Below, piece after piece: positions 23,604 to 40,408 of a stretch of 40,408 nt of DNA. The notes below the pieces were generated by a model. That model was not told the DNA's origin. It did no database searches and saw nothing but the letters and a program-made list of their open reading frames with translations. The position numbers were made by a program, and so were the translations under genes. Position 1 is the first letter of the stretch. Every line of letters starts with the position of its first letter. The stretch spans positions 1 to 40,408 of the IMG/VR virus record IMGVR_UViG_3300032280_000539. One strand, given 5' to 3'. This DNA is from a virus. Its lineage: Duplodnaviria > Caudoviricetes.

Positions 23604-24101
23604 ATGGAAACTACACCCTACGAAACGTCTACTGGATTTTATGCCAGTAAGATCGCCATGAGCTCTCTCGACGACACATGGGCAACCCCTCGGGACTACT
23701 ACAAAAAAGTGGCTCAGGAGTTTAATTTCAAGCTAGACGCCGCGGCCCTACAGTCCTCCACTCTCGTTGAGGATAATTGGTACGGCCCTGATCATCCGGA
23801 CAGCTCCCGCCAAGACGCTTTCCTAATGGACTGGTCTAAAGACTCCGAGGGTGGAGTAGTTTGGCTAAACCCACCGTACGGAAAGACAATCAAACAGTGG
23901 ATGAAAAAAGCTTATGATGAAGCAAAAAAGGGAGCCACTGTTGTGTGCCTAGTGCCTTCTAGAACCGACACTGCTTGGTTCCACGAGTACTGCATCGACC
24001 ACGAAGTTCGCTTCATCCGCGGGCGTCTAAAGTTTGGTGCTGCCGTCAATGCTGCCCCTTTTCCTAGTGCTCTGGTAATAATGAGACCATCTATAGGTTA
24101 A
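23604..24101 (+). CDS. Phage DNA N6-adenine methyltransferase (Dam family)
   Basis: WATP, F.LDAA, WLNPPYG, VPSRTDT.WF, RGRLKFG, APFPS. Confidence 0.9.
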   Translation: METTPYETSTGFYASKIAMSSLDDTWATPRDYYKKVAQEFNFKLDAAALQSSTLVEDNWYGPDHPDSSRQDAFLMDWSKDSEGGVVWLNPPYGKTIKQWMKKAYDEAKKGATVVCLVPSRTDTAWFHEYCIDHEVRFIRGRLKFGAAVNAAPFPSALVIMRPSIG

Positions 24102-24689: not shown

Positions 24690-25334
24690 ATGTTAGCAAA
24701 CACCAAACACACAAAAGATAGGATGGTTTTCTCCATCCTTTCAACGCTACTGTTCGTAACAGCGTCCAGCGCAATTTACGACACCCCCTCTGCAACTGCA
24801 GAGAACCGGATCCAGGAAACTAAAGTAGTTACCTACGTAGTCCCAGTACCACGCACCACCCTGCTTGATGAAGCCTCCACGATTGACAAGTTCAATAAGA
24901 AGATCGACGGACTCAAAGGCATCATCACCAAGAAAGACCAAGCGCTCACCGATTTGAGAGAGACTTACGTTTCGACCGATCAGGCGCTTATCAAGCTGAA
25001 GTCGTTCGTTGGGAAATCCCCATACGGCTTCGGAGACACCCCCGCCCGATGGGATTGTTCGGGCCTAACCCTCTGGTACTATGAGAAGTACAGAGGCATC
25101 ACACTCCACCACTCGGCTACGGCCCAGATGCGCGGAGGCAAAATCGTAGACGCCCCTATTCCTGGAGACATCGTCGCCTTTAGCTATGGAAATTCTAGCT
25201 CGGCATTCCATGTGGGAATCTACGTTGGTAGTGATATGTTTATTCACGCCAAGAACTACAGCGCCGACACAGTTCTAGAAACTGTCTCTGGTTTTGCTAA
25301 GAACAATATCAAGGTTGCATATATCCGCTACTAG
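24690..25334 (+). CDS. Secreted NlpC/P60 peptidoglycan endopeptidase
   Basis: Signal-like N-terminus; PY.FG, DCSG, PGD, HVGIY, IHA. Confidence 0.88.
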   Translation: MLANTKHTKDRMVFSILSTLLFVTASSAIYDTPSATAENRIQETKVVTYVVPVPRTTLLDEASTIDKFNKKIDGLKGIITKKDQALTDLRETYVSTDQALIKLKSFVGKSPYGFGDTPARWDCSGLTLWYYEKYRGITLHHSATAQMRGGKIVDAPIPGDIVAFSYGNSSSAFHVGIYVGSDMFIHAKNYSADTVLETVSGFAKNNIKVAYIRY

Positions 25335-26810: not shown

Positions 26811-29009
26811 TTGACAAGCTACGACACTAACGACAGCGAAGCGAAGTGCCCGGTTCCGCGCGGGTCGTCTACAGCACGCGGTACAACTAACGAGGGTTGG
26901 TGGCCAGATCAGCTAACCACTGACGCACTAATCCACAATTCTCCAAAGTCTGATCCATACGGTCCAGATTTTGACTACGCCAAGGAGTTCCTATCCCTAG
27001 ACCTCGACGAGGTTAAGGATGACATCTCCGCAGTTCTAGTTGACTCTAAGAGCTGGTGGCCAGCGGACTACGGAAACTACGGTCCGTTTATGATTCGTCT
27101 AGCATGGCACGCCGCTGGGACCTACCGAGTCTCCGACGGACGTGGCGGTGGCGGAGCGGGACTTCAGCGTTTCGCTCCACTTAACTCTTGGCCAGACAAC
27201 GTAAACCTAGACAAGGGTCGCCGTCTACTTTGGCCAGTAAAGCAGAAGTATGGACGCAAGCTCTCTTGGGCTGACCTCTTCATCTTGGCAGGTAACGTTG
27301 CCCTCGAGGACATGGGATTCAAGACCTATGGCTTCGGCGGTGGACGCGCAGATGTTTGGGAGCCAGACAACACCTACTGGGGTTCGGAGACTGAGTGGTT
27401 GGCTAACGGCCGCTATGACGCGACCCGCGAGGCAGGCACACTTGAGAATCCACTTGCAGCTGTGCAGATGGGTCTGATTTACGTAAACCCAGAGGGCCCG
27501 GATGGCGTCCCTGACTTCAAGCTAGCTGCTGCAGACATCCGCGAGACATTCGGCCGTATGGCAATGAATGACGAGGAGACTGTTGCACTTATTGCTGGAG
27601 GCCACGCCTTCGGTAAGACTCACGGTGCAGGTTCTGCAGACCAGGTTGGTGTTGAGCCAGAAGGTGCCCCGATCCACCAGGCTGGACTCGGTTGGGCAAA
27701 CTCACAGGGCAAGGGCCACTCGGAGGACACCATCTCTTCTGGTCTAGAAGTTACTTGGACTCCAAACCCGACCCAGTGGGACAACGACTACCTACGCATG
27801 ATCTACGCTTACGACAACTGGGAGCTTGAAGAGTCTCCAGCTGGTGCTAAGCAGTGGCGTCCAGTTGCAGACGAAATCAACCTAGCTCCTCACGCTCACC
27901 TTGAGAATGAGTTTGTTGAGATTCGCATGCTAACCACCGACCTAGCCCTGCGCTTTGGCGACGAGACTTACAACGACATCTGCCAGAAGTTCCTTGCAGA
28001 CTTTGACTACTTCTCTGATGTCTTCGCGAAGGCTTGGTACAAGCTGACTCACCGTGATATGGGCCCTAAGGTTCGTTACTTAGGTGCCGAGGTTCCAGAG
28101 CGTGAGCTACTGTGGCAGGACCCAATTCCAGGATCCCGCTCGGCTGCAATCTACCTAACAGAGGACCAGCGTGCAGAACTTAAGGACTTGATCCTAGAAA
28201 CTGGTATTCCAGCTTCTAAGCTAATCAAGACTGCGTGGGCGTCTGCGTCAACCTTCCGCAACACCGACAAGCGCGGTGGAGCGAATGGTGGTCGCATCAC
28301 TCTAGAGCCTCAGGTTTCTTGGGAAGTCAACGAGCCAGAGATCCTAGAAGAAGTAATCACTGCACTCAAGGAAATCAGACGCAAGTTCAAGACTTCCATG
28401 ACGCTAGCTGACCTTATTGTCTTTGCTGGCACCATTGCGGTTGAAATCTCGATCGAAGACAACGGAGTAGATACCTACGAAGTTCCATTCCTAGGCGGCC
28501 GTGGTGACGCAACTCAGGCCGATACTGACGTTGAGTCTTTCAACCACCTACGTCCAGTTGCTGACGGTTTCCGCAACTATGCTCCAAGACACGAAGACAT
28601 CGCAGAGCGTCTACTTCTAGAGAAGGCAGCCCTACTTGGCTTGACTCCTCCAGAGTTGACAGTTCTTGTTGGCGGTCTACGCGTCCTCGGTGCAAACCAC
28701 GGCGACTCCACTCACGGTGTTCTTACGGAAACTCCTGGCGTTCTAAACAACGCCTTCTTCCGTAACCTCCTTGACAACGAGATCGCTTGGGCACCTAAGG
28801 CTGACCTTCCGGGCGTCTACGGTTCTCACGCATACGCCGACGGAGAGCGCAAGTGGACCGCGACTCGTGCAGACCTAGTGTTTGCATCGAACTCTGTTCT
28901 ACGTGCACTGGCAGAGGTTTACGCCTCTGACGATGCCGGCCGCAAGTTCATCCTCGATTTCATCGCGGCTTGGACCAAGGTTATGAACGCCGACAGATTC
29001 GATTTATAA
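26811..29009 (+). CDS. katG: Catalase-peroxidase
   Basis: [56 protein letters not shown]-terminal KVMNADRFD. Confidence 0.97.
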
Positions 29010-29823: not shown

Positions 29824-31251
29824 ATGGGTAAAAGTATTATGGAGCTTCTGGCAGCCCTGCCAGATCAAGAGCGCTTCGAGGCAATGCAGGGACTAGACCC
29901 AGACAATCTAATTTGGGACTGGTCCGTTTGGGCGCGCCCAGAGCAGCTCCCTCCACCAGATGTCGACTGGAACGTTTGGCTTGTTCTCGCCGGCCGTGGT
30001 TTTGGTAAAACCCGCCTAGCTTCCGAGTGGGTCCGCGAGATGGCCAAGTACACCACTGAAGGTCAGCGCCGTTTTGCACTTGTTGCTCGTACTGCCGCTG
30101 ACGTACGTGATGTTATCGTTGAAGGTGAATCGGGAATCATCAACGTTTCCCCTCCTTCAGAGAAGCCGCTCTACGAGCCTTCAAAGCGTCGTCTAACTTG
30201 GCCTAACGGAAATACCGCCACCCTCTTCACCGCCGATGAGCCTGACGGTCTCCGTGGTCCTCAGTTCACCCACGCATGGGGCGATGAGATTGCAGCTTGG
30301 CGTCAGACCCCAGACGCTGCTGGTATGACCGCCTTCGACAACCTTCGCGTTGGTACTCGTCTTGGCAAGAACCCGCAGATCCTTGTGACCACCACACCTA
30401 AGCGTGTCCCGCTTCTTTATAAGCTCATCGAAGAGTCTCGCATGGATAAGCAAGGCGGATCTAAGGTTGTAGTTACTCGCGGTTCTACCCTAGACAACGC
30501 TGGAAACCTTTCCGGTGCGTATCTTGACACCATTATGGGCGTCTACGAAGGCACAACCCTAGCTCGCCAAGAGCTTTACGGTGAGATGCTTGACGATGTT
30601 GAAGGAGCTCTTTGGAATGAAGAAATGGTTGAGGCAGCTAGAGAGAATATGTACCCTCACTCTACTCCGCTTCGTGTTATCGGCGTGGACCCTTCGGTTG
30701 CTGAGAATCCCCGCGACGAGTGCGGTATTATCGTCTGCGCGGCTACTGCAGAACACGACCTCTATAAGCGCAATGCTTGGGTTCTTGAGGACGCTTCAAT
30801 TCACGGATCCCCGGACACCTGGGCCCGTAAAGTTGTGGAAATGGCTCGCAAGTGGGGTTGTCCCGTTGTTGCCGAAGTTAATCAGGGAGGCGCGCTCGTT
30901 AAGAATGCCATCCTCTCGATTGACCCAACCATTAAAGTCTTGGAAGTTCACTCGAAGTACGGAAAGCAGCTAAGAGCCGAGCCAATTGTTCTCGCTTACG
31001 AGCAGGCACGTGTTCACCACGTTGGCTACCTTCAAGACCTAGAGTCTCAGATGTATTCTTGGATCCCAGAAAGCTCCTCCAAGTCCCCGGACCGCGTGGA
31101 CGCGCTAGTTCACGCACTCACTGCGCTCCTAATTAAGCCTCCTCCAGGCTTCTCGGGCGGAAAACTACGTGCAAAGAGCCTCGCAGATCGTAAAATGGGA
31201 GTAGCAACCCCAAACACTGGCCGCGTTGGTCGCGTCTTTAAGGTTAGATAG
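29824..31251 (+). CDS. terL: Terminase large subunit
   Basis: AGRGFGKT Walker A, LRGPQF...WGDE Walker B, TTTP, GVDP nuclease Asp, SPDRVDA. Confidence 0.95.
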   Translation: MGKSIMELLAALPDQERFEAMQGLDPDNLIWDWSVWARPEQLPPPDVDWNVWLVLAGRGFGKTRLASEWVREMAKYTTEGQRRFALVARTAADVRDVIVEGESGIINVSPPSEKPLYEPSKRRLTWPNGNTATLFTADEPDGLRGPQFTHAWGDEIAAWRQTPDAAGMTAFDNLRVGTRLGKNPQILVTTTPKRVPLLYKLIEESRMDKQGGSKVVVTRGSTLDNAGNLSGAYLDTIMGVYEGTTLARQELYGEMLDDVEGALWNEEMVEAARENMYPHSTPLRVIGVDPSVAENPRDECGIIVCAATAEHDLYKRNAWVLEDASIHGSPDTWARKVVEMARKWGCPVVAEVNQGGALVKNAILSIDPTIKVLEVHSKYGKQLRAEPIVLAYEQARVHHVGYLQDLESQMYSWIPESSSKSPDRVDALVHALTALLIKPPPGFSGGKLRAKSLADRKMGVATPNTGRVGRVFKVR

Positions 31252-31919: not shown

Positions 31920-33680
31920 TTGGGTATTTTCAGAAAAGATGACGCAAGATCGAGTGATCCTCGACCAAACTTGCGTGCTTCGGCCCCAAAAACAGCCACT
32001 CGTGTTGCTCCAGGGGTCACAATCGACTCTTTTGGCATCGTTCGTGCAGAGCCTCAGACCTTTGATGCCCCTCGTCCGCTAACTGCAGCTGCTGCTCAGG
32101 TAAACCTACAAGACAAAGGCGAAGCAGAGCTATTCAAAGCTCGTCGTCAGTCCGCTTCTACCTCTTGGCAGAGCGAAGCATGGGAGTATTACGACTCTAT
32201 CGGCGAGATTAAGTACGCTTTCAACCTAGTTGCGTCTGTTGTCTCCCGTATTCGTCTTTATGCAGCTGCAATTCAGAACCCGAGCGAAGCTCCTGCCCCT
32301 ATTGACTCTGTTACCAAGGTTGATGACCGCCTAGCTGCTGCTGCCCAGCGTGCCCTAGACCGTTTAAGCTCTGCTTATGGTGGACAGCCTGGTCTTCTCA
32401 AGGATGCTGCCCTAAATATTCAGGTTGCAGGAGAGTGCTACTTGGTTCAGATCCCAGAGCGCATCGGCTCCGGACTGCCAGAGACTTGGGATATCCGGTC
32501 TGTTGACGAGCTACAGGTTGACTCTAAGGGTAACTACATCATCAACCCTAGACGCGATGTTGGTGGCGGCTCTTCTTCACTGATGTCTCAGGGCAACAAG
32601 GATGCAATTGCTCTTCCGAAGCAGGCTTATGTTGGCCGCATTTGGCGAGCACACCCTCGGTACAGCCAAGAGTCGGACTCTTCACTACGCGGCCTACTGG
32701 ATCTTTGCGCCGAGCTTCTGCTTCTGAACCGCACCTTCCGTGCGACCGCACGTTCACGCCTAAACGCTGGTGCTCTTTACTTGCCAGATGGTCTTTCAGT
32801 AGCTGCGTCTCCAGACCCAGACTACCCATACGATGAAGACGGCAACTACAACGAAACCTACAATCCGGAAGAAGCTGCCGACGACTTCGAAGATCAGCTA
32901 ATCGACGCGATGACCACTCCGATTAAGGACGAGGATTCAGCGAGCGCCGTTGTTCCACTTATTATTCGAGGACCTGCAGAACTTGGCGACAAGATCAAGC
33001 AGTTCAAGTTCGAGCGTTCCTTCGACCCGGCTCTTGCTCAGCGTTCAGACCGAGTACTAGAGCGCATCATGCAGGGCCTAGACGTTCCAAAGGACGTTGT
33101 AACTGGACTTGCCAACGTTAAGTACTCCAACGCCCTACAGATCGATGAAGCCCTCTACAAGGCGCACATCGAGCCTCTGATGCTGCTTATCGTTGACGCG
33201 CTCACAGTTATGTACTTGCGTCCATATCTAATCGCAAACGGCTACTCACCTGAGGAAGTAAAGAACGTTTGCATCTGGTATGACCCAAGCCTGGTTGCCA
33301 CCCGTAATGACCGTGCTGCTGACGCAGACATGGGATTTGACAAGATGGCAGTGTCGTTTGACACTTGGCGTCGTGCACACGGATTCTCGGAGGCTGATGC
33401 TCCTGACGCTAAGGAGCTAGCACTTCGACTAATCATCTCCAAGGGTATGGTTACCCCTGAGCTTACCGAGGGCATGCTGTCTGCTGTTGCTCCAGAAGTT
33501 ATGGGCCAGATTAGGCAGCAGGCTATGCAACAGAGCGGCGCTCCTATCCCACCAGAGATTGATCAGCTACTACAAGGAGGAGAGCCTGCCGCCGCTCCCG
33601 AAGCAGGACAAGCTCCATCCTCACCAGAAGCTATAACCCCAGCAGAAGCAACTCCACCACTAGCAGAGCCAGAGGTTTAA
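31920..33680 (+). CDS. Portal protein (actinophage type)
   Basis: Position after terL/DUF1360; WQSEAWEYYD.IGE, GECYL, RIWR.HP, SRL.AG. Confidence 0.8.
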   Translation: MGIFRKDDARSSDPRPNLRASAPKTATRVAPGVTIDSFGIVRAEPQTFDAPRPLTAAAAQVNLQDKGEAELFKARRQSASTSWQSEAWEYYDSIGEIKYAFNLVASVVSRIRLYAAAIQNPSEAPAPIDSVTKVDDRLAAAAQRALDRLSSAYGGQPGLLKDAALNIQVAGECYLVQIPERIGSGLPETWDIRSVDELQVDSKGNYIINPRRDVGGGSSSLMSQGNKDAIALPKQAYVGRIWRAHPRYSQESDSSLRGLLDLCAELLLLNRTFRATARSRLNAGALYLPDGLSVAASPDPDYPYDEDGNYNETYNPEEAADDFEDQLIDAMTTPIKDEDSASAVVPLIIRGPAELGDKIKQFKFERSFDPALAQRSDRVLERIMQGLDVPKDVVTGLANVKYSNALQIDEALYKAHIEPLMLLIVDALTVMYLRPYLIANGYSPEEVKNVCIWYDPSLVATRNDRAADADMGFDKMAVSFDTWRRAHGFSEADAPDAKELALRLIISKGMVTPELTEGMLSAVAPEVMGQIRQQAMQQSGAPIPPEIDQLLQGGEPAAAPEAGQAPSSPEAITPAEATPPLAEPEV

Positions 33681-33681
33681 T

Positions 33682-34137
33682 ATGAACACGCCAAAACTCG
33701 ACATTGCACAGAAACTCGCGGGGGTTTTGTCTGATACTGTCACCGCAAAGTACATCCTTCAGGGATATCACTGGAACGTACTTGGCCCCGACTTCGGCGA
33801 GTATCACGAGTTCTTTGGAACTCTCTACGAGGACGTAGACTCTTCGATTGATCCGCTGGCTGAAAACATTCTGAAGGTTGGCTACCCTGCTCCCTACCTG
33901 CTGAGTGATTTTGTAGAGATGTCTACAATCAAAGAAGAGCGTCAGGACGGATCCTCTACTCACTTTATGCTTCAGTCTACTCTTCGTGTTTTAGAGAAGC
34001 TATACGCTTGCCACCTAGAGGCCTTCCACATCGCTGATCAGCACGACCTTCAAGGTCTGATGGACTTCTTAGCCACGCGTATTGACATGTACGCCAAGTG
34101 GGTTTGGCAAACAAAGGCATACCTAGGAGTTCGCTAA
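33682..34137 (+). CDS. dps: Dps family ferritin-like protein
   Basis: HWNVLGPDF..YHEFF..LY.....IDPLAENI ferroxidase signature. Confidence 0.9.
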   Translation: MNTPKLDIAQKLAGVLSDTVTAKYILQGYHWNVLGPDFGEYHEFFGTLYEDVDSSIDPLAENILKVGYPAPYLLSDFVEMSTIKEERQDGSSTHFMLQSTLRVLEKLYACHLEAFHIADQHDLQGLMDFLATRIDMYAKWVWQTKAYLGVR

Positions 34138-36051: not shown

Positions 36052-39000
36052 ATGTCCAACGAACTACGCCAAAGACTAAGCGCAATTCTTGCTGCTATCG
36101 GCCTTAACGACGGTGCCAACAAAGGCTTCTGGCGAATCCAGCCTCGTGATGACGAAGGTCAGTGGATTGAGATGGGTGCCGACGTACTATTCAGAGTTCG
36201 CCTTGGTAGCGGTAGCTTAGTAGTTGGAACTGTTAGAGGCGTTTACGTTGGTCCATCTGGTAAGCCAGGTAGGGCACGTGTTCTAGTAGAAGGCCAAGAA
36301 GCGAATGGAATCCCTTCGGGCGTTTATGACGTTGAATCCAACAACCTACAGCAGTTTAAGGCGCTTCTTCCTAGCGCTAGGGGTAAAGCTAAGCCCGGTG
36401 AGCGCAAGGATAAGTTTGGAAAGCCAGTAAGGACCCTAGCCGACTCCCAGCTGCCGGAGCTAAAGAGCCTACTAAAAACTGATATTACAGACGAGGACCG
36501 TCGTCTAGCCAAGGGTGAGCTAACTCCTGAAGAGCGCGAAGCAGAGCAGGATGGCCGCAAGAACTCCCCTATTGCAGATCTTCCTGCAGGCTTTGAAGCA
36601 GAAAACCCTGAAGAGGCTAAGAAGCTTCTACGCGAATCTGGCATAGAGCCAGATGACTTTGATCCAGACGCACAGCCAGCAGCTGCTCCCCAGGCCGAGC
36701 TAAAGCAGGCCACGGCTGCCTGGATGCTTAATCCAAAGAATCATGGCAAGCAAATGTTTTACGTGCGCAGAGGCAAAGCCATGCCTGTTTGGGTGGACAG
36801 CTTTGGAGAGACGGTCTTTAAGGGCTATGCTCCAGTTGACCCAGACGACCACAACGCGGAGCCTCTCTCCTCAATCGATGATTTTGCAGAGTCTGCTAAA
36901 AATGGAACCATCAACCTATTTCAAGGCCCAGTCCCGTATGTAGACGGAAAGCCGATGGACGGCTTCGAAATTAACCGTCTTGCATCACGTCAGGTTGCAG
37001 AGAAGGCCGAGGCTAGGAAGGCCGCAAAGGCCGCGAAGCCAGCAGCAGAAAAGCCAGCAGTAAAGCAAGGGGATATACCTGTTGCAGATCGGCTAGATCG
37101 TCCTAGACCTATTGGAAGTCCACCTCTTGAGAAGGACACCCGCGAGATTGATAGCCTCACTCCCGAACAAGTAAGCGAAATGATTAAGGAAGCTAAGCGT
37201 TTATATGTAGGTAGTCCTGTCTCAGAGCCAACTCTCGAAGAACATGACCAAGCAGCACAGGAGGCATATCGTGCAGCCTACGTTGTTGATGCGGCTAAAG
37301 GCCCGGCTAAGGGTAAAAACCCAACTGGTGACGAGCGAGTAGACGAGGCCATCGCTACGGTTAACTCCGAGCCTAAGACAAAAAAGATTAAGGCACTGAA
37401 CCTTGAAAGAGGTATGACCCTTGTAGTTGGCGAACAGCGCAAGCAGCTGACAATCTCTGACATAGATCTAGAAGCCGGCTGGGTGAAGCTTTTAGACTCT
37501 GAAGGAAAACAAGTTCCAGCCTTTGATGCAAAGGATCCTAAGAATGCAGGTAAAGGCAACCCGCTAAACCACCCGATAAAGACCAATGGTGAATACACCA
37601 TTCTTGATGCCAAGAAGTCACTGCCTAAGCCTGCTAAGCCTGCAAAGCCTGCAAAGCCAACCGCGCAACCGGCTACTCCGACCCCGGCTACTCCAGCTAA
37701 GCCTGCTAAGCCTGCTAAGCCTGCTGCACAGCCAACTACCCCGACTCCGGCTACTCCAACTCCAGCTACTCCAGCTACTCCAGCTACTCCAGCTGGTAAG
37801 GGTGGCAAGAAGAAGGGCAAGTCAGCACCTGTTGTTACGCCTCCGCCGATGCAGGCCGTAAAGAGACCAAACCGCAAGGACAAGGGCCAGATGGTTAGCC
37901 CTAGCCCTAAGTCTGTTGAAGAGCTTCGTAATAAAAAGATTAGAAATGCCATCAATGAAGACGGAACTCTTGCATACATTGAAGATGATAATGGTAATTT
38001 TAGAACCTTTGAAGACCCTAACGCAATTATCGATGCTCTCTTGGAAGAAAACCCAAACGCGGTAATTAAAGATGATGGAAGTGTTGTTGTCGAGCGCGCT
38101 AAGTTCACAGACAACGATGGGAAAGAGTACATCTATGAAGTTAGTGTCCAGCAAACATGGAACAACCAGTTCATGGAGAGGTACCTTTTCAAGGATGCAA
38201 AAACTGGAGAAGTTACTCACGACCTCTACAACTACGACTACAAAGACAGTTTCTACGGCCTTTACGGAGTAGCTAGCGGTCTAACCAAAACTAGAGACAT
38301 GCTTCTAGGGCGCGCGATCCCGGGTAAGAAGGGAGTAGATGCTGATGGAGTGCCTCTAGGCAGTACCGAGCTTCCTAACTACTTTGGCCCTACTAAGAAC
38401 CTAGACCAGAGATTAAAGTATTTCCGTAAGACTAGCGATATCCACAGCTGGAAAGTTATTACGATGGAAGAGAACGTCGCTAAGTGGATACTGGGACGCA
38501 AGCGCGCCCTCAATAAATCAGATAGCACGGGTCGGAAAACAGGTAAGAACTATAAGAATCAGTACTTAAACGTTCGTCGCAGTTTTGTAGCATCTCTTTA
38601 CGAAGCAGTAGACCTTAGAGATCCAGAGCTATTCAAAGAGCGACTAGTTCAGCTTATGGGTAGAACCCCTAACACTCCAGAGATGGTTGACTTGATCACT
38701 AAGACCCTAAGAAAGGGCATCACTGAGAGATATAAGGGAACTGCCAGGGAGAAGGAACTTCAAACCCTTCCTCTATATGCTAAGTACATTTTGACAAATG
38801 CGCAATTCGACCTACGAAACAGGTCTCAGGTGCCGTTCATGTCTGAAGATGGCATCACACCAGTAGTTAAGGGAGACATAGTTCGCTTCGTAAGCAATGA
38901 AGGAGACTATGCCATTGGTGAGGTTATCAAGCTCAACGCCCAGTCGGGTGGTAAGGGCGGATACAAAGACACCGCAAAAGTTAGATTTGCAGATGGCACA

Positions 39001-39492
39001 ATTGTTGATAACCTTCAGACCCGCAATATGCTACACACCGAGGAAGAGCTTACTGACTACACCCCTTGGGTCAAAGAAGAAGAAAAGATTCGACGTCGCC
39101 TATCCCAGGTAGGTCTCACTTGGGAAGAGTATATGCTTAGACGTCAGGAAAACCCTGACTACGACCCAGAGAAGCGCGATAAAGAGTACGCTCCATTTGA
39201 TGCTGGATCGCCTTACTTGGGTGCTTCTGGGACCGAGGGAGATGTTGAACCAGAAATCGCCGAAGAAGAAGTCGAGCCTGAAGCCCCATCTAACCAAAAG
39301 AAGGCAGAAGACCTCGTAGCTGGCGACGCTATGTACAACAAGGATGGAGAGTACATCGGAACTGTTATCGAGACAGTTTCGGTTCCATCTGAAGATGGCG
39401 GCGAACCTGGTATTGCAGTTAGATACCTCACCATCGATGGCCAAGAAGAAGTCGAAGTTCTAGATAGTGGTGAATCCCGCGGCCCAAAATAG
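36052..39492 (+). CDS. Very large putative virion-associated protein, N-terminal part
   Basis: QPRDDEGQW N-terminal motif, Pro/Ala/Lys linkers, head-module position; ends at slippery site. Confidence 0.75.
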   Translation: MSNELRQRLSAILAAIGLNDGANKGFWRIQPRDDEGQWIEMGADVLFRVRLGSGSLVVGTVRGVYVGPSGKPGRARVLVEGQEANGIPSGVYDVESNNLQQFKALLPSARGKAKPGERKDKFGKPVRTLADSQLPELKSLLKTDITDEDRRLAKGELTPEEREAEQDGRKNSPIADLPAGFEAENPEEAKKLLRESGIEPDDFDPDAQPAAAPQAELKQATAAWMLNPKNHGKQMFYVRRGKAMPVWVDSFGETVFKGYAPVDPDDHNAEPLSSIDDFAESAKNGTINLFQGPVPYVDGKPMDGFEINRLASRQVAEKAEARKAAKAAKPAAEKPAVKQGDIPVADRLDRPRPIGSPPLEKDTREIDSLTPEQVSEMIKEAKRLYVGSPVSEPTLEEHDQAAQEAYRAAYVVDAAKGPAKGKNPTGDERVDEAIATVNSEPKTKKIKALNLERGMTLVVGEQRKQLTISDIDLEAGWVKLLDSEGKQVPAFDAKDPKNAGKGNPLNHPIKTNGEYTILDAKKSLPKPAKPAKPAKPTAQPATPTPATPAKPAKPAKPAAQPTTPTPATPTPATPATPATPAGKGGKKKGKSAPVVTPPPMQAVKRPNRKDKGQMVSPSPKSVEELRNKKIRNAINEDGTLAYIEDDNGNFRTFEDPNAIIDALLEENPNAVIKDDGSVVVERAKFTDNDGKEYIYEVSVQQTWNNQFMERYLFKDAKTGEVTHDLYNYDYKDSFYGLYGVASGLTKTRDMLLGRAIPGKKGVDADGVPLGSTELPNYFGPTKNLDQRLKYFRKTSDIHSWKVITMEENVAKWILGRKRALNKSDSTGRKTGKNYKNQYLNVRRSFVASLYEAVDLRDPELFKERLVQLMGRTPNTPEMVDLITKTLRKGITERYKGTAREKELQTLPLYAKYILTNAQFDLRNRSQVPFMSEDGITPVVKGDIVRFVSNEGDYAIGEVIKLNAQSGGKGGYKDTAKVRFADGTIVDNLQTRNMLHTEEELTDYTPWVKEEEKIRRRLSQVGLTWEEYMLRRQENPDYDPEKRDKEYAPFDAGSPYLGASGTEGDVEPEIAEEEVEPEAPSNQKKAEDLVAGDAMYNKDGEYIGTVIETVSVPSEDGGEPGIAVRYLTIDGQEEVEVLDSGESRGPK
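37621..37795 (+). repeat. Coding low-complexity repeats (PAK)n/(PAT)n
   Basis: 9-bp units such as CCTGCTAAG and CCAGCTACT. Confidence 0.85.
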
Positions 39493-39511
39493 ACGGGGCC
39501 CGGGAGGCCCC
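39483..39511 (+). other. Candidate -1 programmed ribosomal frameshift signal
   Basis: C_CCA_AAA in phase directly before TAG; 5-nt spacer; GGGGCC-CGGGA-GGCCCC hairpin. Confidence 0.75.
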
Positions 39512-40408
39512 AGCCGCACTTAACTCCTTAAGCAATCTAGGAATCGACTTCCAGTCCGCAACAATGGACGCTGGCGGGACTCGCCTACCTACCCCGGGTG
39601 CGTTTACTGGAAAATTCCAAGAGATTCTAGAAGGCGCAGATAGCTGGGGTGAGGTTGCAGATAGGCTGCAGGGTCAAACCATAACCTACTTTGACTTCGA
39701 GACTACAGGTATCTCGGACTATGACGGACAGGACGTATTCAACAATCCTGTTCAGCTAGGCGCTGTGCAGGTTAAAGATGGAAAAATCGTCAAGCGATTT
39801 AACATGTACGTTAACCCAGAGAGTCGCCTTTCCGACTGGTCTGCAAACAACCTAAAGCGTGACGTTCTAGACGAAAACGGCGACATAGTTCGAGACGAGA
39901 ACGGTAAGCCGACTACCACTCTAGTTACCCCAGAGTGGCTCGCCCAGCAACCTAACCAGAAGGAAGCGCTAGACGCGTTTATTGAGTTTATTGGCCCTGA
40001 CGCGCTTCTTGGTGGTCAGAACGTGCCTTTCGATGTTGAAATCTTGAAGCGCATGGCTGACAAGTATGAGACCCCGCTGTCAATTGCAGGAACTATAGAC
40101 TCTAAGGATCTTGCATCCCTTCTACCTAAGTATGATCCTGAGAAGGGCGTAGACGGTCCAAAAGCACCAGACCGCAAGACCGGTGAGGTTAGGGCTAGCT
40201 CTAGCCTTGGTCCTGTTGCCAACTTCCTAGGCTTTGAGCCAGCAAACTGGCACAGTGCGGATGGTGATGCTGAAGACTCCTACAACCTTGTTTCCAAGAT
40301 AATTAATCGCGCTGCAGAAGAAAACAACAGCAACCTAGGCCTCCTAGACTTTGACGCAATGCAAGAGCGCTATAACGAACGCATGGCGGAGTTTAAGCAG
40401 GTAGTGTC
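39483..40408 (+). CDS. DEDDh (DnaQ-like) 3'-5' exonuclease domain, -1 frame continuation, truncated by window end (not in ORF track)
   Basis: Open from 39474 to end; ExoI YFDFETTG, ExoII GQNVPFD, ExoIII HSADGD; first ATG 39564 lacks an SD. Confidence 0.85.

Follow-up and report, generated by a model that had tools for sequence, protein, structure and literature searches.

We propose that the 3' end of a giant gene in the head region of this phage is very probably a site of -1 ribosomal frameshifting, at which a fraction of the ribosomes would pass from the end of a 1146-aa protein (ORF1) into an extension carrying enzymatic domains. The window analyzed here is a whole viral contig of 40.4 kb, and its end is the end of the contig. 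A programmed -1 frameshift with a short and a long isoform had been put forward in the initial annotation, and the comparison of homologous genes strongly supports it at the sequence level. The frameshift is supported because five features coincide: a slippery heptamer, 3' stems, an SD-like element upstream, avoidance of the slippery codon pairs elsewhere in the genes, and naturally occurring in-frame fusions of the same proteins.

The layout described in the initial annotation was found again at the coordinates of Table 1. ORF1 ends in GGC CCA AAA TAG, which places C_CCA_AAA in phase; a hairpin with the arms GGGGCC and GGCCCC follows, and the -1 frame opens after the TGA at 39471-39473 and stays open from 39474 to the contig end.

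Table 1. Features of the giant gene, its junction and its upstream neighbors in the window
Feature	Position	Strand	Remarks
Terminase large subunit	29824..31251	+	Context
Portal protein	31920..33680	+	phrog_776, E 4e-104; context
ORF1, 1146 aa, short isoform	36052..39492	+	Homologue of A3Wally gp85
N-terminal domain, motif Q-x-R-D...G-x-W-x-E-M-G	36052..36561	+	Alignment of 118 sequences
Pro/Ala/Lys/Thr low-complexity linker	37597..37850	+	Repeat families D7, D9
Conserved core, aa 605-1146	37864..39489	+	Common to split and unsplit homologues; 40 rows including the window
Last ORF1 domain, predicted SH3/KOW-like barrel	39289..39489	+	Ends R-G-P-K at the slip site
SD-like GGTGA	39469..39473	+	9 nt 5' of the heptamer; contains the -1 frame TGA
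Slippery heptamer C_CCA_AAA	39483..39489	+	In codon register
Extension in the -1 frame	39489..40408	+	306 aa to the contig end; 840 aa in full
Zero-frame stop TAG	39490..39492	+	Immediately 3' of the heptamer
6-bp GC hairpin	39495..39511	+	Spacer 5 nt; -11.9 kcal/mol; predicted stimulator
ATG used by gene callers	39564..39566	+	Internal Met of a conserved module, no SD
DEDDh 3'-5' exonuclease domain	39690..40290	+	D 39693, E 39699, D 40032, H 40251, D 40266

At this locus, an in-register heptamer thus lies within the overlap of the two frames, with an SD-like element on its 5' side and a selected, start-less -1 frame behind it. The window holds three copies of CCCAAAA with a nearby stop, where 0.9 would be expected, and 6 of 100 shuffled sequences reach three. 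Heptamers in register occur at 0.0021 per codon within giant genes, which corresponds to about 1% for the 19-nt overlap. The hairpin region (48 nt) folds no better than its shuffled versions (z 0.07; 91 of 200 shuffles as good); the 3' stem is found across 27 junctions and is not significant for the window alone. Taken by itself, the window locus is only suggestive of a frameshift, and it is the comparison across homologues that raises it above chance.

Relatives were fetched using query sequences from which the signal is absent, namely the DEDDh domain (10 loci), the upstream gene (80 loci), the portal (80 loci), and the N-terminal domain of ORF1 (79 loci). The N-terminal domain was located in them by an iterated profile, and ORFs of the downstream gp87-like gene were taken out with a second profile. 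An HMM of the small downstream gene, considered as a marker of the locus end, covers only 16 ORFs and was dropped. Left unclassed were 85 homologous ORFs that run off their locus and ORFs with less than 60 nt past the stop, and near-identical gene ends were merged, giving 69 distinct ends.

At 27 of the 69 ends, a long ORF without ATG or GTG within 20 nt overlaps the stop, and it lies in the -1 frame every time. An in-register heptamer is present in 26 of these (20 CCCAAAA and 6 AAAAAAA), compared with 1 of 14 ordinary -1 neighbors that have their own start beside the stop. That single case, GGGAAAA in L223, coincides with the SD of the next gene at an overlapping start and was set aside. In the split genes, the zero-frame stop always falls 0 or 1 codon past the heptamer. 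The exception among the 27 is L062, which has an extra break and the normal site further on; L026 supplies the 27th site, behind an earlier in-frame TGA. The extra -1 break of L062 (4915-7763) stands at about codon 240, has no heptamer, is not found in the near-identical L064, and is likely an error or a mutation. In L026 (9406-13857), the TGA breaks into the giant first ORF upstream of the usual slip site, and readthrough, mutation, and assembly error are all candidate explanations.

The conservation of heptamer and hairpin among homologues, which the initial annotation had named as a check, was borne out. All 27 junctions have a 3' stem of -10.3 kcal/mol or better that begins 4-8 nt downstream and differs in sequence from one to the next, while stems of -9 or better accompany 19% of 210 decoy heptamers within genes and 33% of 216 random positions. 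Pairing with the anti-SD sequence peaks 6-10 nt 5' of the heptamer; 17 of the 27 sites have the signal, compared with 11% among 1080 background positions, and it is missing from the other 10 junctions. Elsewhere in the same genes, C_CCA_AAA is used for none of 139 Pro-Lys pairs and A_AAA_AAA for none of 195 Lys-Lys pairs. A conserved Gly-Glu dipeptide may account for part of the SD-like signal (P 0.04 in the comparison with the fused genes). The 27 junctions are moreover related by descent and do not count as independent trials, so that the P values for stems, SD-like signal, and codons overstate the significance. Four split genes have another domain in front of the same heptamer, and L167, among the nearest relatives of the window by the N-terminal domain, has another heptamer and no DEDDh domain. 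A motif-first scan of 39 of the 64 parts of the collection gave 119 matches, of which 3 belong to the giant-gene family of the window, and none of the remaining 116 (39 of them loci with short flanks) combines a long ORF with a long -1 frame. The slip motif alone is common and uninformative, and nothing in the scanned parts points to the cassette at the end of any other gene.

Seven unsplit orthologues (L097, L103, L105, L143, L180, L183, and L207) provide a natural experiment, in which split and fused versions of one gene are compared and the signal is confined to the split ones. They have the same terminal barrel and R-G/A-P-K or a close variant, and then continue in frame for 360-460 aa; the six in the BLAST set, which does not include L143, match zincin-bearing extensions of split genes. 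The proline codon is CCT in all seven, none has the heptamer, and their stems (-1.8 to -9.7) are each weaker than that of any split site. An SD-like signal is present in one of the seven, compared with 17/27 split genes. L093 likewise encodes ArdC-N and MPTase domains in frame, whereas its tree neighbors have both behind a slip site. In a quick tree built from the N-terminal domain, the split genes are scattered among the unsplit ones, with 10 changes between the two states, 6 of them forced by starred branches; the tree is unrooted and does not distinguish gain from loss of the split.

Three other origins of the split have to be weighed against a ribosomal frameshift. An assembly indel or a decaying gene could have broken one continuous ORF: continuous homologues of 3600-3900 aa with the same DEDDh domain exist, and the L062 break, missing from its near twin, indicates that such errors or mutations happen. 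The read check proposed in the initial annotation, run here on contigs and not on raw reads, revealed no gap at the junction. Run X1, possibly the source itself, matches in one piece and gap-free; contig X8 of another study (39286-39794) bridges the junction with 15 differences and no gap; and contig X2 bridges it gap-free, only narrowly. In L243 of the metagenome collection, which is 89.8% identical over 5.4 kb, the junction is identical letter for letter; the 240 nt surrounding the signal differ at 2 places, compared with about 3.6 differences per 60 nt further downstream. Purifying selection acts on the -1 frame: relative to L243, its 300 codons show 43 synonymous changes and 7 non-synonymous ones; the other two frames give 5/46 and 3/47. 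The break falls at a homologous boundary, and always into the -1 frame, in genes that are widely separated on the tree. On these sequence comparisons, we reject an indel artefact and leave hardly any probability to an indel or gene decay.

The downstream ORF could also be a separate gene, translated from ATG 39564 or by translational coupling, with no trans-frame protein. Gene callers do place the start there, but this Met lies inside a module whose residues upstream of it are conserved with synonymous changes, and the same module is found 270-1350 aa deep inside continuous ORFs of L004, L007, and L127. In 26 split genes, the first ATG or GTG has no constant location, its distance from the stop varying over 20-605 nt, and one of them has an SD-like match. 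The missing SD at ATG 39564 is a weak argument, since 2 of the 7 accepted starts tested in the window lack one as well. A separate gene would leave the heptamer and the stem unexplained, and we regard it as very unlikely. Neither outcome that the initial annotation had named as speaking against it was thus encountered, the contigs containing no single continuous ORF and an independent start at 39564 being improbable. Slippage of RNA polymerase, adding a base in the C/A run, would give the same long product. Some polymerase slippage is plausible at seven-A runs, which make up 6 of the 27 sites; the other 21 are only C3A4, all sites are in codon register, and a 3' structure with a 5' SD-like element is a stimulator of the ribosomal type, so that polymerase slippage is given a very small chance as the explanation.

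ORF1 matched no Pfam, PHROG, or NCBIfam family. Its N-terminus matches gp85 of Microbacterium phage A3Wally and the counterparts in four related phages. The A3Wally gene, which is bracketed by gene 82 (portal) and gene 88 (major capsid hexamer), is single and unsplit, so a frameshift is not required across the whole family. The model of the N-terminal domain (pLDDT 83.7) is predicted as a small SH3/Tudor-like barrel, whose best structural match (Z 5.7, rmsd 3.0, 71 aligned) indicates a common fold only. The core model reached a pLDDT of 82.5, and the last barrel matches domain I of EF-P and eIF5A-like proteins (Z 8.2, rmsd 2.5, 64 aligned), again in fold only; such barrel matches of predicted models assign no function. 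In Foldseek searches at E 0.001, neither the N-terminal domain nor the core matched a solved structure, and the core matched no viral model. Profile searches of solved structures gave nothing, and the Atlas no usable match for core residues 605-930. These missing matches do not imply a new fold, and the first 320 core residues were barely covered. No packaging domain was recognized in ORF1; among the 27 first ORFs, the MuF profile had no match and Pfam none above cut-off, and the two modeled parts of ORF1 gave SH3-like matches only. A C-terminal query of ORF1 in viral contigs returned 16 pattern matches and no relative, and the core query found no cultured phage at E 0.01. The N-terminal-domain profile also matches internally in the gp87-like head gene (L002 14179-17469; L243 12358-14973), which in L243 contains LysM as well; the motif common to the gp87-like and giant genes could be a common head-targeting signal.

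The initial annotation had the long isoform carry enzymatic cargo with exonuclease motifs, and inside the window the extension amounts to about 305 aa. The exonuclease stands: the ExoI D-x-E, ExoII D, and ExoIII H-x4-D motifs are in the -1 frame, the RNase_T profile reaches 50.1 bits (cut-off 24), and the catalytic residues are invariant in 10 sequences, so that motifs and family profile both point to a DEDDh domain. The end of the window cuts the extension short. P0003, identical to the window over a 227-aa query, has 815 aa from ATG 39564, which with the 25 codons upstream makes an extension of 840 aa, the same as in L243, and a long form of 1986 aa. In the full extension of P0003, the DEDDh domain is followed by a middle region, and a domain with the motif HEYGH stands at the C-terminus. 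The look-alikes of this last domain in the Atlas are zinc peptidases, and no Pfam match was obtained for it in P0003, including PF18818 (MPTase-PolyVal), which is above cut-off in 3 relatives. On the motif and these look-alikes, the extension is predicted to end in an HExxH zincin. P0003 and L243 thus combine two unrelated enzyme domains, DEDDh and the predicted HExxH zincin, as polyvalent proteins do. With regard to DNA polymerase III epsilon, the model of DnaQ proper (TIGR00573) scores 24.1 bits, below its cut-off of 71.5; the domain matches a phage family labeled DNA polymerase exonuclease subunit, while PolC/DnaQ-type models remain below cut-off. The DEDDh query gave just 2 records, both weak and unannotated.

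DEDDh is one of several exchangeable cargoes, and the designation of it as the cargo of this protein holds for the window but for only 5 of the 27 extensions. The other domains counted are a VIP2-like ADP-ribosyltransferase (1), ArdC-N (4), and MPTase-PolyVal (3). The extensions span 173-1638 aa, the complete ones 263-1638 aa, and 10 of the 27 have a Pfam match above cut-off, compared with none of the first ORFs. HExxH is present in 24 of the 27 (23 as fetched and the window through P0003); two of the three extensions without it are cut, and one is complete (L102, 263 aa). The DEDDh domains of P0004, P0005, and P0006 are 96-98% identical with modules inserted before or after them, indicating rapid shuffling of cargo among near-identical phages. 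Two tandem giant genes (about 1800 to more than 3800 aa each) are found in L004 (2-20884), L068, L085, L220, and L240, and in L004 both contain DEDDh.

The host is likely an actinobacterium, because WhiB, an actinobacterial marker, was found in all three relatives examined (of five loci); in a control with 14 genomes, Corynebacterium was the sole match. No tRNA genes were found in the window. A full-length catalase-peroxidase above the NCBIfam cut-off (26811-29009) lies just 5' of the terminase, and a Dps/ferritin-like gene is found at 33682-34137; together, they point to an oxidative-stress pair within the late region. A Dam-family adenine methyltransferase and an NlpC/P60 peptidase are encoded at 23604-24101 and 24690-25334, respectively. 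The sequence TAGTTATTTTTTCTG occurs 25 times between 4718 and 22220 at one mismatch or less (24 on the plus strand and 1 on the minus strand), and 0 times in 100 shuffles. Its copies lie between small genes, often right behind a terminator-like hairpin, and it looks like a repeated regulatory site.

Here, we propose the following mechanism. The ribosome would pause at Pro-Lys ahead of the stop and the stem, with SD pairing helping, and tRNA-Pro and tRNA-Lys would slip in tandem by one base back (CCA AAA to CCC AAA). Most ribosomes would end at the 1146-aa scaffold and a fraction would go on to the 1986-aa form, the slip fixing the ratio of scaffold to cargo. The long form would be packaged with the scaffold and become active in the infected cell, where the zincin may release domains or cut host targets and DEDDh may trim nucleic acid. 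As a whole, this account of a rationed scaffold and payload, with packaging and action in the infected cell, is the one we consider likely. For its parts, association of the protein with the virion is somewhat favored, by analogy, and action in a newly infected host has about an even chance. A packaged and injected effector, also suggested in the initial annotation, is an inference from gene position and the polyvalent-protein literature. More tentatively, and with slightly less than even confidence, the family may form a recoding-gated polymorphic effector system, in which a virion-internal scaffold carries an exchangeable payload dosed per particle by the -1 frameshift, and lineages switch repeatedly between always-fused and rationed forms. 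If so, the payload would be a nuclease, an ADP-ribosyltransferase, an antirestriction protein, or a protease; lineages would toggle between fused and rationed forms via a few synonymous bases and a hairpin; and evolution would be able to tune the amount of injected cargo through the efficiency of the frameshift.

The main rival to packaging accepts the frameshift but lets the protein work late in the producing cell and not be delivered by the virion, for example in superinfection exclusion, in assembly of the head or its processing by the zincin, or in proofreading or nucleotide recycling by DEDDh. Packaging is argued from gene position and analogy, the DEDDh domain matches the family labeled as a polymerase subunit, non-structural genes such as the Dps-like one also occur in the head region, and PMC5512222 itself, in the excerpts consulted, allows superinfection roles. 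A core replication subunit, however, would not be expected in only 5 of 27 extensions and mobile within giant genes, and the ADP-ribosyltransferase, ArdC-N, and MPTase cargoes are typical early-acting polyvalent domains. We consider a late intracellular role unlikely, though it keeps an appreciable share of the probability, and prefer the packaged payload.

Extensions of phage head and tail proteins by -1 frameshifting and polyvalent proteins are both known already, and the frameshift idea for split MuF/VIP2 pairs is a precedent. The frameshift of Lactobacillus phage A2 reportedly uses the same CCCAAAA heptamer. In the virion-protein extensions (A2 major head and tail proteins, T3/T7 capsid, Listeria A118/A500), as here, the site is at the end of a head-region gene and gives short and C-terminally extended forms. 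According to excerpts of PMC5009743, the proteins extended in those cases are major capsid or tail proteins, the added parts are mostly short Ig-like domains, the extended head protein of A2 is essential, and the SD stimulator of bacterial -1 shifts is at a distance of 9-14 nt. The gene of the window family, by contrast, is separate from the major capsid gene and its extensions are exchangeable enzyme domains of 263-1638 aa. The tail assembly chaperone G/G-T is alike in using a -1 shift on X_XXY_YYZ to make two forms in a set ratio; the chaperone gene of A3Wally differs in location, as gene 95 before the tape measure and ten genes downstream of the gp85 homologue. MuF-like proteins fused to VIP2 ADP-ribosyltransferases occur in Microbacterium phages of clusters EH and EJ (PMC7302621, in part of its text), and in an excerpt of PMC10885494, the PRFect authors note that split MuF/VIP2 pairs may frameshift. 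They resemble the present family as head-region actinophage proteins with an optional enzyme, in which fused and unfused forms coexist. As far as those excerpts go, the fusions are in frame and the PRFect remark reflects classifier calls by gene category, without analysis of sites; no MuF domain was recognized in the window family. The literature searched, to which supplements and subscription journals did not belong, held no description of a family-wide site, and the PRFect site list could include a relative.

The closest likeness is to polyvalent proteins, which in the excerpts of PMC5512222 are giant multidomain proteins of portal-terminase phages that combine unrelated enzymes around a zincin hub. 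The giant gene of the window likewise lies among the virion genes of a portal-terminase phage, and the polyvalent ArdC-N, MPTase-PolyVal, and ART domains recur in the extensions of its relatives. In the same excerpts, the zincin is the commonest polyvalent domain, its phage forms are thought to be packaged, and zincins may release domains. "Exonuclease" appears once in the main text of PMC5512222, and DEDDh is apparently no prominent cargo among those listed there; "frameshift" does not appear in the main texts of PMC5512222 and PMC7824862. The annotation of this widespread phage family would also change, since the downstream ORFs have been called from internal starts and labeled as separate "DNA polymerase III epsilon-like" proteins, so that the long isoform goes unnoticed. 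If the central claim, which a cassette of 65 nt makes testable, is right, phage recoding would reach beyond tail chaperones and Ig-like decorations and would also set the dose of large enzymatic payloads. Polyvalent proteins have been described as single polypeptides, whereas in the window family recoding would part the scaffold from its cargo.
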